A DNA stretch of 64,000 bases from an uncultured Bacteroidales bacterium (GTDB taxonomy: Bacteria > Bacteroidota > Bacteroidia > Bacteroidales > VadinHA17), in NCBI GenBank assembly GCA_963765005.1, contig CAVXUP010000002.1, positions 279,607 to 343,606 on the forward strand. Reading direction: 5' to 3'. A program made the translations under genes and the position numbers. This document shows positions 14 through 44,949 of the stretch, one piece after another. Position 1 is the first letter of the stretch; every line of letters starts with the position of its first letter. The notes below the pieces were generated by a model, which saw only the letters and a program-made list of their open reading frames with translations, made no database searches and was not told the origin of the DNA.

Positions 14-910
14 ATGGAACGATTTACGCTTAATAACCTTGAAAGCCTTACCGGCATAAAGGCCGATACAATAAGGATCTGGGAGAGAAGGTATGGCCTG
101 CTTACTCCATCGCGTACGGCAACAAGGCGAAGATGGTATAACGGAGATGACCTTACCAGGCTGATAAACATTTCCCTGCTTTACAGCAAAGGGATCAAAA
201 TCTCACAGATCGCCAGATTATCTGATTCGGAGTTAAATGAAAGAGTTTCGTCATTAGGCGATGGGGATAGAAGAACATCAGATCAGATAGCTTCCATGGT
301 TGTTGCAATGACCAGACTCGATGAGGCATCAATAAATGAGATACTCCTGAAATCAATAATTACAAGGGGAATCGAAGCAACCTATTCAGAGGTCGTGTTT
401 CCATTTCTTCACAAGCTTGGCCTCATGTGGCACACAGGCGCTGTTGATATAGGTACTGAGCACTTTGTATCAGGAATTTTCAGAAAGCGTATTATTTCTG
501 CTATTGACTCACTCCCCGGTCGTTCTGCGGGAACAGGAAGGAGATTCCTTCTTTTTCTTCCTGAAGGTGAACTTCATGAGCTTGGTCTTCTGTTTTTTTA
601 CTACCTGATAGTCAGGGCGGGAGAACTAGTATTGTATCTCGGTCAGTCTACCCCGCTTAAAGCTGTTGTTAAGATTGCCGGGCAGTGGGATCCTCATGTG
701 ATAATAACCGGAACTCTGTCAGGCCTTGGTCAATATAAACCTGCTGAATTTCTCAGGCTCTTAAACAAAGAACTTCCCGGCAGAATGATTCTGGCTGCCG
801 GAGGACTTGCCGATAAAGCTGATAAGATTAATATTTCTGAGATAAAGTCACTGAGAAGCAGCAAGGATCTCGACCTGATACTAAAATCCCTCAGTATCAA
901 AGTCGGTTGA
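14..910 (+). CDS. MerR-family transcriptional regulator with C-terminal cobalamin (B12)-binding domain (CarH/LitR-like)
   Basis: N-terminal MerR HTH pattern ([23 protein letters not shown]...RRWY..DDL..L). C-terminal Rossmann-like part has an E-x-H-x-x-G B12-ligand motif (GELHELGLL) and a later GG. Confidence 0.75.
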
Positions 911-37597: not shown

Positions 37598-38959
37598 TTA
37601 AGATGGGAAGGTAATTTTGGATATTGCATCATCTACTTCGGCTGTTGTCATCTGATGATCCGGAAGGTTATTCTCAAAGTATTTCTCATAAGCCGAGATA
37701 TCAAAATGACCATGGCCGCTGAGGTTGAAAAGTATTGTTTTTGACACTCCTTCAATATCAGCCTTTCTTGCTTCATCCATAGCACCTGCAATTGCATATG
37801 TCGATTCAGGAGCCGGAAGAATGCCTTCATTCCTGGCAAAAAGGACTCCTGCCTCAAAGCACTCTCTCTGCAGTTTTGCTTTTGCTTCAACAAGTCCGTC
37901 TTTAAGAAGCTGACTTACAATCACACCTGCACCATGGTAGCGCAAGCCTCCGGCATGTATCTTTTCCGGGATGAAATTATGCCCGAGAGTGTACATCGGA
38001 AGCAAAGGAGTCATCCCGGCCGAATCGCCAAAGTCGTACATGAATTTGCCCTTTGTTAGTTTCGGACATGAAGCAGGTTCAACAGCCACGAGCCTGATAT
38101 CCTTTTTATTAAGCAGTTTCTCGCGCAGGAACGGAAAAGCAATTCCTGAAAAGTTCGAACCTCCGCCGAAACAGCCGACAACTACATCGGGATAATCGCC
38201 AGCTTTCTCCATCTGAATCAAAGCTTCCTGTCCAATTATAGTCTGGTGAAGGCTGACATGATTCAGGACGCTTCCCAGCGAATATTTAGTGTATGGATCC
38301 TGTCCGGCCACTTCCATTGCTTCCGAAATTGCAATACCAAGACTTCCGGGGGAGTCCGGATCGAGTTCAAGAACTTTCCTGCCGTATTCTGTCATTGTGC
38401 TCGGAGAGGCCAGAACTTTGGCATTATAAGTATTCATAAGGAGTTTCCGGCCGGGTTTATTATCATAGCTTACCCTGACCATAAAGACCAGAAGCTCAAT
38501 TCCGAAATAGTTGCAGGCGAAACTCATCGCGCTGCCCCATTGTCCGGCACCTGTTTCAGTTGTGATCCTCCTTACGCCCTCCTGTTTATTGTAATAGGCC
38601 TGAGGAATTGCTGTATTTGCTTTATGTGAGCCTGAATAATTGCCTCCTTCATACTTGTAGTAAATCTTGCTCTTTGTGCCAAGTGCTCTTTCGAGATTTA
38701 AAGCTCTGAAAAGAGGAGAGGGGCGATAAGTCCTGTACAGATCAACAACTTCTTCAGGTATATCGATATATCTCTCTGTAGATACCTCCTGTTTGATGAG
38801 TTCCATCGGAAAGACAGCCGCAAGGTCCTGTGGCCCGATAGGCTGCCGTGTAACCGGGTGAAGAGGTGGCATAGGCTTGTTTGGCATATCAGCCAGGAGG
38901 TTATACCATTGCCTCGGCATTTCATTTTCGCTTAAAATAATTTTTCTGAGCTTTTCCAT
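37598..38959 (-). CDS. trpB: TrpB-like PLP enzyme (tryptophan synthase beta chain type 2, TrpB2)
   Basis: 453 aa, long TrpB2-type N-terminus (PRQWYN..ADMP..P.PP); PLP-lysine context GSHKANTA; GGGSNF loop; no trpA nearby. Confidence 0.85.
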   Translation of the reverse strand: MEKLRKIILSENEMPRQWYNLLADMPNKPMPPLHPVTRQPIGPQDLAAVFPMELIKQEVSTERYIDIPEEVVDLYRTYRPSPLFRALNLERALGTKSKIYYKYEGGNYSGSHKANTAIPQAYYNKQEGVRRITTETGAGQWGSAMSFACNYFGIELLVFMVRVSYDNKPGRKLLMNTYNAKVLASPSTMTEYGRKVLELDPDSPGSLGIAISEAMEVAGQDPYTKYSLGSVLNHVSLHQTIIGQEALIQMEKAGDYPDVVVGCFGGGSNFSGIAFPFLREKLLNKKDIRLVAVEPASCPKLTKGKFMYDFGDSAGMTPLLPMYTLGHNFIPEKIHAGGLRYHGAGVIVSQLLKDGLVEAKAKLQRECFEAGVLFARNEGILPAPESTYAIAGAMDEARKADIEGVSKTILFNLSGHGHFDISAYEKYFENNLPDHQMTTAEVDDAISKITFPS

Positions 38960-38986
38960 TGTTTTCGTATTTATTGGTTAGTAATT

Positions 38987-39025
38987 TTTTAAAATAAAAA
39001 AGGCATGCTGTGATCAGCATGCCTT
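38987..39025 (-). terminator. Intrinsic terminator (attenuator) between the Trp leader and trpB2
   Basis: Perfect 11-bp stem aaggcatgctg / cagcatgcctt (39000-39010 and 39015-39025) with a 4-nt loop. On the minus strand it is followed by UUUUUUAUUUU. It ends about 40 nt upstream of the trpB2 ATG. Confidence 0.7.
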
Positions 39026-39059
39026 CTTAAGTAAGTATTATTATAATGTTACATAATGG

Positions 39060-39122
39060 CTAAATCACAGCTTCGTTTGATGTGCTGCGCCAAGACCAGT
39101 TATGTGACATTTCTATTCTCAT
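39060..39122 (-). CDS. Candidate Trp leader peptide MRIEMSHNWSWRSTSNEAVI (or MSHNWSWRSTSNEAVI from the second ATG)
   Basis: Hand-translated minus-strand mini-ORF with two Trp codons (tgg tct tgg). It lies between a promoter-like motif and the terminator hairpin upstream of trpB2. Confidence 0.55.
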   Translation of the reverse strand: MRIEMSHNWSWRSTSNEAVI

Positions 39123-39127
39123 GAGGG

Positions 39128-39157
39128 CAAATATATGGAAAAATTTATATTGTCAAA
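39128..39157 (-). promoter_or_regulatory. Bacteroidota-type promoter candidate (TTTG-N18-TATATTTG) for the Trp leader
   Basis: The minus strand reads gTTTGacaatataaatttttccaTATATTTGccctcATG. This matches the published -33 TTTG / -7 TAnnTTTG consensus. Confidence 0.35.
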
Positions 39158-39208
39158 CAAAATCGGGAATATTTTAATTAATTTTTATAAAACACTTAAT
39201 ATTTTAAA

Positions 39209-39330
39209 GTCCGAAGACCGAAGACCGGAGACCGGAGTTTTCATTCAGGACATCACCCTGGCCCCAAAGGGGGAATTTGAAGAGCTTCTAACTTCGGACT
39301 TCGGTCTTCCGTCTTCGGTCTTCTGTCTTC
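39209..39330. repeat. Word-array hairpin: (ccgaaga/ccggaga) x4 arm, ~55-nt loop, (tcttcgg-type) x5 arm
   Basis: Read directly. Starts 12 nt after the aroA stop. Shares the 17-mer ccgaagaccgaagaccg with 42745-42811. Confidence 0.85.
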
Positions 39331-39341
39331 TTATTCGTGAA

Positions 39342-40580
39342 TCACCGCCCCAGCGACCTCATATCGTCAAAGAATCCCGGATACGATTTTGCAACGCAGT
39401 GCGAATCCCTGATATGGACTTTTCCGCTTGCCCCCAGGGCAGCAACCGCTGTTGCCATGGCTATACGATGATCTTCATGCGATTCAACATGAGCACCAGA
39501 AGGCTTGCCGCCAGTCACATACATTACATCGCCGTTTACTTCAACCTTTATATTCATCTTACCGAACTCATTCATAAGTGTCGCAGCCCTGTCGCTCTCT
39601 TTATGGGCAAGTCGCGATACACCAGTTATTGAGGATACTCCATTGCAATAAGCGGCAAGTGCGACAAGAGGCGGGAAGAGGTCGGGTGACTCGGTTGCAT
39701 CAAATTCAAAGGCCTTCAGGTCAGATTTTTTAACATAAATATACTCCTTGCCAGCATCTATTGAAGCCCCTGCACTAAGCAGGGCCTTTAAAATTCCCTT
39801 GTCGCTCTGATTGCTTTCAGAGTGCAGTCTTTCTATTTTCAGATCACCGTTTATTGCTCCGGCCACCAGTAAGAAAGCCGCTCCGCTCCAGTCTCCTTCA
39901 ACAGTATATTCGCAGGGGATATATTTTTGTTTTCCGGGAATAATAAACCTGTCATAACCGTCTCTCTCAATTTTGATTCCAAACGAAGCCAGTATACCGA
40001 GCGTCATGTCGATATAGGGTTTGCTTTTAAGGTTAATGACTTTTACATCTGAATCCTTTGGAGCAACAGGCAGTGCCATAAGAAGTCCTGTAAGAAGCTG
40101 GCTGCTGACCGACCCGTCGATTTCACATTTCCCTCCCTTAAGCGGCCCTTTTATCATCAGAGGTAAAAAACCGTCTGTGGATGTGCATTTTACTCCAAAC
40201 TGTTTAAGTGCATCGCCGATCATGTTCATCGGCCTTTTTCTGAGCGAGTTGGCGCCGGTTATTGTTATCTCTGCAGGATATAGTGCTGCAATAGGAGAGA
40301 ACATGCGGATTGCAAGACCAGATTCGCCGCAATTCAGCTTCGATTCTTTCAGTATGCCAGTCCCCCTGATTTTAAGCTCATGGGCTTCAGGTTTGATAAT
40401 GGCTCCCAGCCCTACAGCTATACTCATGGCAGCAACGGAGTCATCACAGTATGATGGATTATGGATTATTGTCTCTCCGTCGGCAAGCAATGCAGCTGCT
40501 ATTGCTCTTTGTGTCATGCTTTTTGATGTAGGGGCTTTGATTGTCCCTTTTATTTGTGACGGCTCTGCAATTCGTTCCAT
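39342..40580 (-). CDS. aroA: 3-phosphoshikimate 1-carboxyvinyltransferase (EPSP synthase)
   Basis: 412 aa; KSMTQRA, LNCGESGLAIR, RLAHKESDR, DHRIAMA motifs. Confidence 0.9.
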   Translation of the reverse strand: MERIAEPSQIKGTIKAPTSKSMTQRAIAAALLADGETIIHNPSYCDDSVAAMSIAVGLGAIIKPEAHELKIRGTGILKESKLNCGESGLAIRMFSPIAALYPAEITITGANSLRKRPMNMIGDALKQFGVKCTSTDGFLPLMIKGPLKGGKCEIDGSVSSQLLTGLLMALPVAPKDSDVKVINLKSKPYIDMTLGILASFGIKIERDGYDRFIIPGKQKYIPCEYTVEGDWSGAAFLLVAGAINGDLKIERLHSESNQSDKGILKALLSAGASIDAGKEYIYVKKSDLKAFEFDATESPDLFPPLVALAAYCNGVSSITGVSRLAHKESDRAATLMNEFGKMNIKVEVNGDVMYVTGGKPSGAHVESHEDHRIAMATAVAALGASGKVHIRDSHCVAKSYPGFFDDMRSLGR

Positions 40581-44819: not shown

Positions 44820-44845
44820 GCAAGGGCCCCTCGAGGGACCCTTGC
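44820..44845 (-). terminator. GC-rich hairpin (candidate attenuator) between the Phe/Tyr leader and pheA
   Basis: Minus-strand RNA gcaaggguccc-ucga-ggggcccuugc (11 bp including one G-U) followed by cauuuuaau. It ends 15 nt before the pheA ATG (21-nt stretch from hairpin end to start codon). Confidence 0.5.
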
Positions 44846-44883
44846 TTTACAAAAATTATCTTTATCTGTATACAAAAATCCCT

Positions 44884-44949
44884 CTATCTCTCTTTAAAAT
44901 AAAAAAAGAAGTAAAAATAGGAGTAGAAGTATTTGTACACAATATTCAT
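44884..44949 (-). CDS. Candidate Phe/Tyr leader peptide MNIVYKYFYSYFYFFFYFKER
   Basis: Hand-translated minus-strand mini-ORF of 21 codons, of which 6 are Tyr and 6 are Phe. It lies upstream of the pheA-aminotransferase-tyrA-DAHPS/CM-aroA genes. Confidence 0.6.
   Translation of the reverse strand: MNIVYKYFYSYFYFFFYFKER

Follow-up and report, generated by a model that had tools for sequence, protein, structure and literature searches.

A predicted leader-peptide tryptophan attenuator upstream of trpB2 in an uncultured Bacteroidales bacterium

What does TrpB2 do in a bacterium in which no other trp gene is found, and what decides when its gene is expressed? This question is raised by a stretch of 64,000 nucleotides (nt; hereafter the window) of contig CAVXUP010000002.1 from an uncultured Bacteroidales bacterium, where a short leader region, read on the minus strand, stands upstream of trpB2. 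An earlier note on this DNA had read the region as a device of ribosome-mediated attenuation that responds to tryptophan (Trp). The conservation of the leader, the covariation of its helices and its predicted folding strongly support this reading, and we consider it highly probable that the element is a functional ribosome-mediated (leader-peptide) attenuator, with charged tRNA-Trp as its signal and trpB2 as the gene under its control. Such a mechanism is classical; its target is unusual and informative.

Conservation and covariation of the trpB2 leader

A mini-ORF (open reading frame, ORF) at 39122-39060, a promoter-like motif TTTG-N18-TATATTTG before it and a hairpin with a U6AU4 tract after it had been described in the earlier note, and all of them are present in the sequence (Table 1). 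The region thus has a predicted short ORF with cognate (Trp) codons and an intrinsic terminator between this ORF and trpB2. The promoter motif ends 5 nt before the leader ATG, the last leader codons and the UAG stop overlap or adjoin the segment that we call segment 2, and an AU-rich spacer separates the ORF from the terminator hairpin. Over 171 nt the region has a minimum free energy (MFE) of -43.3 kcal/mol (z = -5.4 against dinucleotide shuffles), with a long 5' hairpin over the ORF and the terminator as its structures. No second terminator-like site was found within 38800-39450, and no TAnnTTTG box can be read in the 40 nt between the terminator and the trpB2 ATG.

The gene was found in 53 of the 61 related genomes searched, and a scan of GTDB species genomes gave 80 further loci; the homologue records are metagenome-assembled genomes of uncultured Bacteroidales, obtained from fens, peat, sediments, biofilms and digesters. 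The upstream element is present in every Bacteroidales locus whose TrpB2 is at least 70% identical, save for two leaderless loci (L012/L046 and L018/L065) that are discussed below. It is missing upstream of the TrpB2 genes (~67% identical) of Chitinophagales, Saprospirales and Cytophagales. In distant trpB2 loci of Chitinophagales, Saprospirales and similar groups (L092-L108), which have no Trp leader, a motif, GATCTTTTTCAGTATCTTGAT, is conserved ~20-40 nt before the ATG and is possibly a promoter or an operator. From the Bacteroidales loci we aligned 69 distinct trpB2 leaders in 137 columns (alignment A1).

The first 62 columns of this alignment, which are almost free of indels, have the marks of a translated frame. 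The leader starts with ATG in 66 leaders and with GTG in two, and the distance from the start codon to the first UGG is exactly 24 nt in nearly all of them. The remaining leader (L007, 2882-3013) is the sole one with its ATG out of the frame of the Trp codons, through an apparent 1-nt insertion that is either an assembly error or the sign of a decaying copy. The earlier note had left a second ATG (39110) as another possible start. It is the first ATG (39122) whose place is fixed, as 66 of the 69 leaders have it exactly 24 nt ahead of the first UGG; at the second position only some homologues have an ATG, and we rejected it as the start. Over the first 39 nt, no leader has a stop in the leader frame, compared with 65 and 22 leaders for the other two frames.

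Within this conserved frame, the Trp codons to which the earlier note had drawn attention are both invariant (69/69), while the codon between them takes eight meanings (S, W, R, C, L, T, P and F). The second UGG (W2) lies outside every helix of our model, so a coding (decoding) constraint is the best explanation of its invariance. What follows W2 seems to obey another rule. The length of the peptide varies (14, 16, 18, 19, 20, 23 or 24 amino acids) as the stop codon moves, which fits a peptide whose sequence is probably unimportant. The codon after W2 is CGC, UGC, CAC, UGU or CGU (R, C or H), and these changes keep the pairing with segment 2. Since they are non-conservative for the peptide, they indicate that RNA structure constrains the region after the Trp codons. 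An arrest peptide (W-x-W then Arg) was considered and rejected, because the Cys and His changes after W2 preserve RNA pairing and the conservation is thus credited to segment 1.

The 5' end of the leader is conserved as well. Of 73 distinct loci, 61 have a TAnnTTTG box that stops exactly 5 nt short of the leader start, and in three others the gap is 4 nt. The consensus of Bacteroidetes promoters places this box at the "-7" position (PMC7366714), so transcription is predicted to start a few nucleotides before the leader AUG. The leader mRNA is therefore probably nearly leaderless, with at most a few untranslated bases.

Covariation was found in the terminator, in the helix between segments 1 and 2 (1:2 helix) and in the 8-bp antiterminator between segments 2 and 3 (2:3 helix). 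The complementarity of GCUGUGAU (39071-39064) and AUCACAGC (39014-39007), on which the earlier note had built its anti-terminator, is exact over all 8 bp. Across the 69 homologues this helix is paired in 96.7% of the cells of the alignment, compared with 22-50% for slid controls, and it covaries: 52:123 goes from GC to AU six times, 58:117 from AU to UA four times and 59:116 from AU to UA eight times. The architecture is richer than the "simple anti-terminator" first proposed: the 8-bp helix stood up to the comparison, and the 1:2 helix and an outer helix (P0) that takes in the first Trp codon had been overlooked. Together, P0, the 1:2 helix and the terminator form the terminated structure, in which 87.1% of cells are paired (27-50% when slid). 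In P0, ACAUAA/UUAUGU in the window corresponds to AUAUAU/AUAUAU elsewhere, and in the terminator compensatory changes are frequent, e.g., C:G to U:A and G:C to A:U, 11 times each.

Two details tie the covariation to the switch itself. Columns 116-117 are bases of the terminator loop, and they covary with segment 2. This cannot be a by-product of the terminator stem and is therefore specific evidence for the proposed 8-bp helix. Furthermore, a change from C to U in column 123 is matched in segment 1, in segment 2 and in the 5' arm of the terminator, as a 1:2 / 2:3 / 3:4 switch predicts. Two other contacts were considered and not adopted. An antiterminator with the 5' arm of the terminator has only a 5-bp option, between CAGC(A) of segment 1 and GCUG of the 5' arm, in invariant columns. 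A 3-bp GCC:GGC contact inside the predicted antiterminated fold also falls in invariant columns, and such columns offer no covariation in favour of either contact.

Table 1. Features of the trpB2 leader and related loci. Positions are those of the window unless columns of alignment A1 or another contig are given.
Feature	Position	Strand	Description	Basis
Promoter, Bacteroidetes type (predicted)	39128..39157	minus	-33 TTTG 39157-39154, 18 nt, -7 box TATATTTG 39135-39128	sequence
Leader peptide ORF	39060..39122	minus	MRIEMSHNWSWRSTSNEAVI, 20 codons plus UAG (39062-39060)	sequence
Sensor codons	39090..39098	minus	UGG-UCU-UGG; Trp codons 39098-39096 and 39092-39090	UGG codons invariant in homologues
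Segment 1	39084..39089	minus	CGCAGC, 5' strand of 1:2 anti-antiterminator helix	pairs with GCUGUG 39071-39066
Segment 2	39064..39071	minus	GCUGUGAU; partner either segment 1 or segment 3	covariation
Outer helix P0	39045..39111	minus	39111-39095 (with first Trp codon) x 39060-39045; encloses 1:2 helix	MFE and centroid fold
Segment 3	39007..39014	minus	AUCACAGC; terminator loop and top four 3'-arm bases; 3' strand of antiterminator	covariation
Intrinsic terminator	38988..39028	minus	stem 39028-39015 / 39010-38997 (up to 14 pairs), loop AUCA 39014-39011, U6AU4	fold, terminator search
trpB2	37598..38959	minus	453 amino acids; predicted regulated gene; ATG at 38959	profile matches
P0, alignment	A1 columns 16-29 x 63-75		87.2% of cells paired; 5 pairs changed on both sides	
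1:2 helix, alignment	A1 columns 34-43 x 48-57		core 34:57 to 39:52 93-100% paired; CG to UG, GU to AU, CG to UA	
Terminator, alignment	A1 columns 104-115 x 120-130		97.9% of cells paired; 6 pairs changed on both sides	
Antiterminator (8 bp, 2:3), alignment	A1 columns 52-59 x 116-123		96.7% of cells paired; 3 pairs changed on both sides	
Tryptophanase and paralogue (L126, L127)	G000 contig C1:585286-586416, C1:599646-600758		own genome	profile match

A possible course of attenuation

How could the position of a ribosome decide between these helices? We folded the 69 leaders in three states: as free full-length RNA, with a ribosome masking the RNA to column 46 (~15 nt beyond a UGG in the A site) and the RNA emerged to column 125, and at this same length without the mask. 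The free full-length RNA forms the terminator in all 69 leaders and the 1:2 helix in 63. When the ribosome masks the 5' part, the antiterminator is predicted in 68 of the 69, and when an RNA of the same length is left unmasked, it is predicted in only two, with the 1:2 helix in 61. In silico, the leaders therefore have a mutually exclusive antiterminator that depends on the position of the ribosome, as the earlier note had suggested. For the window sequence, the antiterminated state lies at -16.1 to -17.4 kcal/mol when the RNA has emerged as far as bases 116-120, and the terminator state reaches -22.1 kcal/mol as soon as base 123 is out.

The spacing of the leader suits such a sensor. Segment 2 starts 21-27 nt downstream of the UGG codons. 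Given the size of its footprint, a ribosome stalled at either UGG should cover segment 1 and not segment 2, and a ribosome at the stop codon (61-63 in the leader of the window) should cover segment 2. In the variants of 24 amino acids, the ribosome would have passed both segments and the 1:2 helix could re-form behind it.

We infer the transcription start site, the stalling of the ribosome, the kinetic competition, the response to Trp and the substrate of TrpB2, and picture the following course of events. Transcription would start a few nucleotides before the leader AUG, and a ribosome would translate the 20-codon leader. When Trp is plentiful, it would pass UGG-UCU-UGG, reach the stop codon and cover segment 2; after its release, segments 1 and 2 and the outer helix would pair again. 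With segment 2 unavailable, the terminator hairpin would form and RNA polymerase would stop at ~38990. Without translation, the 1:2 helix would form and the outcome would again be termination. When charged tRNA-Trp is scarce, the ribosome would stall with a UGG in its A site, melt the outer helix and cover segment 1 only. As the terminator loop and the upper end of the 3' arm emerge, the free segment 2 could then pair with them, and this 2:3 pairing would block the closure of the terminator, letting the polymerase read into trpB2. The bases of the loop would emerge before any base of the 3' arm, which would give the antiterminator a head start of ~4 nt.

Several points weigh against this account. 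In all predicted folds of the full-length RNA, the terminator is stabler than the antiterminator, which leaves kinetic control as the only kind possible. A pseudoknot in which 7-9 bp at the base of the terminator stem still pair despite the antiterminator is conceivable, and here lies the weakest link of the mechanism. With 8 bp the antiterminator is short, and its partner is the terminator loop with the upper 3' arm, whereas in Escherichia coli trpL the 5' arm is the one engaged. In 500 column shuffles, none reached the percentage of paired cells or the covariation score observed for the terminated structure, but the homologues are interrelated and such shuffle controls overstate significance. 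A near-leaderless start is rare in Bacteroides, as ~3.7% of the 5' untranslated regions (UTRs) of B. thetaiotaomicron are shorter than 10 nt (PMC7366714). Finally, the two leaderless loci have lost the promoter and the leader ORF: in them the terminator hairpin comes straight after the aroA stop, with trpB2 next. They belong to two species of the genus, in genomes (G018 and G006) that keep a canonical trp operon.

Relation to known Trp leaders

Does the element belong to a family of leaders that is already described? A scan of positions 38000-40000 with the models of Rfam, at E values up to 10, gave no match to its two relevant families, Trp_leader (RF00513) and Bacteroid-trp (RF01692), or to T-box or any riboswitch, and only chance matches driven by the terminator. 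The window element does not reach the gathering threshold of RF01692 (49 bits), and over the whole genome of the window organism this model gave two unrelated 24-bit matches elsewhere, which we take as chance.

Another picture emerges from R1, a covariance model for which trpB2 leaders were the sole input. R1 detects a single copy in the own genome, and 66 of the 301 genomes sampled from the order have matches to it. We fetched twelve of its loci, 11 of which have an assignable downstream gene. Five stand before trpB2 (L114, which is the own locus, and L115, L120, L122 and L125), and the other six lie upstream of canonical trpE-first or trpB1-first operons in other Bacteroidales families, with scores of 44-59 bits and E values of ~1e-8 to 1e-12 in the loci searched. 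At locus L121, no match to a trp protein was found downstream. A congener (genome G004) allows a direct comparison. Its canonical trpEGDCFBA operon has its own leader, MTVFFTSWRWWHSKFHCKL (W-R-W-W), and its own terminator (L033, 4485-4625), which R1 scores at 39.5 bits and RF01692 at 30.6 bits against a gathering score of 49. The start codon of this leader stands ~22 nt after the -7 box, compared with 5 nt in the trpB2 leader. Hence, the genome has two paralogous Trp leaders with different 5' ends. In canonical Bacteroidales trp leaders, segment 2 and the terminator loop pair through other bases, e.g., CCGUGA:UCACGG in L116. Since R1 finds canonical operon leaders with the same pairing, the trpB2 leader is, by this comparison, a paralogue of the Bacteroidales trp-operon leader that lies beyond the reach of the current Rfam model.

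In the supplement of Weinberg et al. 2010 (PMC2864571), Bacteroid-trp is described as a hairpin of loose conservation that carries UGG codons and precedes trpB and trpE. Both Bacteroid-trp and the trpB2 leader are found in Bacteroidota, combine an intrinsic terminator with a preceding hairpin in which a short ORF has at least two conserved UGG codons, and are presumed to act by Trp attenuation. The seed sequences of RF01692 that we examined precede trpE or a canonical trpB heading a Bacteroides operon, not TrpB2. The trpB2 leader differs from them by a core that is usually W-x-W instead of WWW, by a start 5 nt after the -7 box and by its single-gene target. It thus fits the description of Bacteroid-trp (Bacteroidota, a UGG-bearing ORF in a hairpin and a Trp-synthesis gene downstream), though this gene is of the TrpB2 type, and the R1 scores reveal a similarity in sequence and structure to genuine leaders of trp operons in the phylum. 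The Rfam model accordingly misses a well-conserved branch of Trp leaders, with 69 distinct sequences and R1 matches in the 66 genomes mentioned above, and this branch could enter annotation pipelines.

The textbook comparison is E. coli trpL. There too, a leader peptide has tandem or near-tandem Trp codons directly before segment 1, the 1:2, 2:3 and terminator pairings exclude one another, segment 2 is hidden by a ribosome that has reached the stop codon, and the greater stability of the terminator makes control kinetic. The two leaders have no sequence similarity, and the Rfam scan of the window region gave no match to RF00513. In the trpB2 leader the terminator 5' arm stands between segments 2 and 3 (order 1, 2, 4', 3), the mRNA probably has no 5' UTR and no Shine-Dalgarno sequence, and one gene is controlled instead of a whole operon. 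In the literature searched on trpB2, attenuation and indole salvage, no Trp attenuator is described for a gene of the TrpB2 type as far as we could find, and neither is the loop-invading antiterminator design, which canonical Bacteroidales trp leaders share. The "trpB2A" of Corynebacterium diphtheriae (PMC1262725) is a coincidence of naming and designates a second trpB-trpA operon.

TrpB2, its genome and the competing explanations

Whether Trp control makes sense for this gene depends on what the protein does and on what else the genome encodes. The product of trpB2 is full-length and scores 703 bits with NF009057 (cut-off 366) and 616 bits with TIGR01415 (cut-off 519), but only 137 bits with TIGR00263, the model of canonical TrpB (cut-off 392). 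Its closest solved structures are the archaeal TrpB2 6hul_B, 4qys_B and 6hte_B, with 447 bits to 6hul_B, and its GSHK motif, which holds the lysine that binds pyridoxal phosphate (PLP), aligns with the same motif of 6hul_B. The TrpB2 proteins of Thermotoga maritima, B. thetaiotaomicron (BT_RS23500) and Sulfolobus (6hul, 4qys, 6hte) belong to the same family. They coexist with a full trp pathway, whereas TrpB2 is the only trp gene of the window organism and has its own Trp attenuator. The role that we propose for it, making Trp from indole, has support in vivo for the Bacteroides homologue, which rescues an E. coli delta-trpA strain via cross-fed indole (PMC11535334). In addition, Thermotoga TrpB2 has a sub-micromolar Michaelis constant (Km) for indole (PMC11535334, which cites Hettwer and Sterner 2002 for T. 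maritima TrpB2).

The earlier note had spoken of a lone TrpB2. This holds for the whole genome, where all other trp genes are absent, and does not hold on the chromosome, where trpB2 follows, on the same strand, a cluster of pheA, an aminotransferase gene, tyrA, a fusion of DAHP (3-deoxy-D-arabino-heptulosonate 7-phosphate) synthase and chorismate mutase (DAHPS/CM), and aroA. The genome is 97.6% complete in 12 contigs. When it was searched by tblastn with the seven Pfam-confirmed trpEGDCFBA proteins of the congener G004, no trpE, trpD, trpC, trpF, trpB1 or trpA was found; only trpB2 matched, and the TrpG query gave only weak matches to unrelated amidotransferases. A search with PF00290 gave no trpA in this genome, and of 38 high-quality genomes from the genus, 15 likewise had none. 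Among 30 trpB2 loci examined, every genome that lacks trpA keeps the leader and trpB2, and both leaderless loci are in genomes that keep the trp operon. Outside the window, the genome encodes a tryptophanase (NF053783, 809 bits; cut-off 750) and, 14 kb away, a second paralogue of the tryptophanase / tyrosine-phenol-lyase family. Both genes sit in a genome unable to make Trp de novo.

The surroundings of trpB2 are also conserved, with the order aroA-leader-trpB2 kept in 67 loci. The window departs from its relatives in one respect. Between the aroA stop and the trpB2 promoter, it has a 122-nt hairpin (39209-39330; -53.6 kcal/mol, z = -3.7) that is missing from most of them and whose arms are built of tandem GAAGACC/GGTCTTC-type words. 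Because of this extra hairpin, the aroA-trpB2 spacer is 382 nt in the window, compared with the usual ~290 nt. It may insulate trpB2 from the aro operon or may be the insertion of a repeat element. At the other end of the cluster, a mini-ORF, MNIVYKYFYSYFYFFFYFKER, lies at 44949-44884 on the minus strand, behind a promoter-like motif (TTTG...TACTTTTG), and a GC-rich hairpin (~44845-44820) follows it right before the first gene of the pheA-to-aroA cluster. By its layout, the element at 44820-44949 looks like a Phe/Tyr leader-peptide attenuator, and leader peptides thus seem to serve both branches of the aromatic amino-acid supply in this organism.

These data allow us to weigh the other explanations that we considered. 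The element could be an independent small RNA (sRNA) of ~130 nt, with an incidental mini-ORF and with trpB2 expressed from elsewhere or by unregulated read-through. The unit does span a promoter and a strong terminator and folds well (z = -5.4), its weak sub-threshold Rfam similarities are all to sRNA terminators, and Bacteroides has many sRNAs (PMC7366714). An incidental ORF would leave the fixed distance from the ATG to the Trp codons unexplained, as well as a frame that is open in all 69 leaders when the others are interrupted in 65 and 22, and two invariant UGG codons, one of them outside any helix, around a codon that varies. The element stands always directly upstream of trpB2, or of trp operons in the case of its relatives, and no promoter box separates the terminator from trpB2. 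We give this explanation very little credence. Much the same evidence bears on the idea that the hairpin is the plain terminator of the upstream aro operon, with trpB2 constitutive and low by read-through and the Trp codons without regulatory meaning. This is what the leaderless loci look like, with the same hairpin between the aroA stop and trpB2, and the synteny of aroA and trpB2 in 67 loci would fit it. However, aroA has a 122-nt hairpin of its own in the window, with a conserved promoter box after it, the promoter, ORF and antiterminator are kept in 69 distinct loci, and a plain terminator does not explain why its loop covaries with segment 2. We find it highly improbable.

Another possibility is that the alternative structures are real and are flipped by something other than a ribosome, be it a TRAP-like protein, an uncharged tRNA as in T-boxes, or Trp bound directly. 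Covariation is proof of the alternative helices only and says nothing about the agent that chooses between them. Still, the scan of positions 38000-40000 with Rfam gave no T-box or other riboswitch, the sequence has no TRAP-type repeats of GAG/UAG triplets, and the conserved start, the open frame and the Trp codons placed 1-9 nt before segment 1 suit a ribosome as the sensor and are otherwise unexplained; we regard a non-ribosomal switch as quite improbable. All three explanations fail for the same reasons, since they leave without explanation the fixed start and open frame, the invariant and unpaired UGG, and the covariation between the terminator loop and segment 2. The last alternative accepts the attenuator as proposed and questions the enzyme: the product of TrpB2 could be a different beta-substituted amino acid, or the protein could deaminate serine or phosphoserine. 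Its physiological role is debated, and the NCBIfam models name the family only "TrpB-like PLP-dependent enzyme." Against such an activity, control through Trp codons points to a product that supplies Trp, the gene is the sole member of the TrpB family in a genome without the rest of the pathway, and the Bacteroides and Thermotoga proteins described above use indole, the former for making Trp in vivo. We think it unlikely.

The reading that we prefer thus remains a Trp attenuator that controls a Trp-supplying TrpB2. Since no other trp gene was found and a tryptophanase is present, TrpB2 is most likely the only route of this organism to Trp, from indole and serine (or phosphoserine), and most likely switched on only under Trp starvation. 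By limiting TrpB2 to these conditions, the attenuator would avert a futile cycle with tryptophanase. A parallel exists in the trpRBA locus of genital strains of Chlamydia trachomatis, in which the trp pathway is incomplete and the synthase turns the indole of neighbours into Trp under Trp limitation. The likeness lies in indole salvage without a complete trp pathway, expressed when Trp is limiting; the chlamydial system has a canonical TrpB with TrpA, the TrpR repressor and other controls, belongs to another phylum and has no homology to the trpB2 leader.

These results matter for TrpB2 as a family. Its physiological role has been debated since its discovery, and a Trp-specific sensor, the retention of trpB2 as the sole trp gene, the absence of trpA from about 40% of the high-quality genomes of the genus and the presence of tryptophanase are strong regulatory and genomic arguments that it makes Trp from indole, an idea that can now be tested by reporter and growth experiments. 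A broader scenario, which we put forward tentatively and with a confidence that falls a little short of even, is that a large clade of uncultured Bacteroidales, at home in fens, peat, sediments and digesters, shed the seven-gene trp operon and lives as "indole-dependent" Trp producers. A module induced by Trp starvation, made of a near-leaderless leader peptide, a loop-invading antiterminator and TrpB2, would turn community-derived or self-made indole into Trp; tryptophanase would do the reverse when Trp is plentiful, and the attenuator would prevent the futile cycle. If this is true, the primary physiological role of TrpB2 would be defined, and anoxic communities would use cross-fed indole as a currency of Trp.

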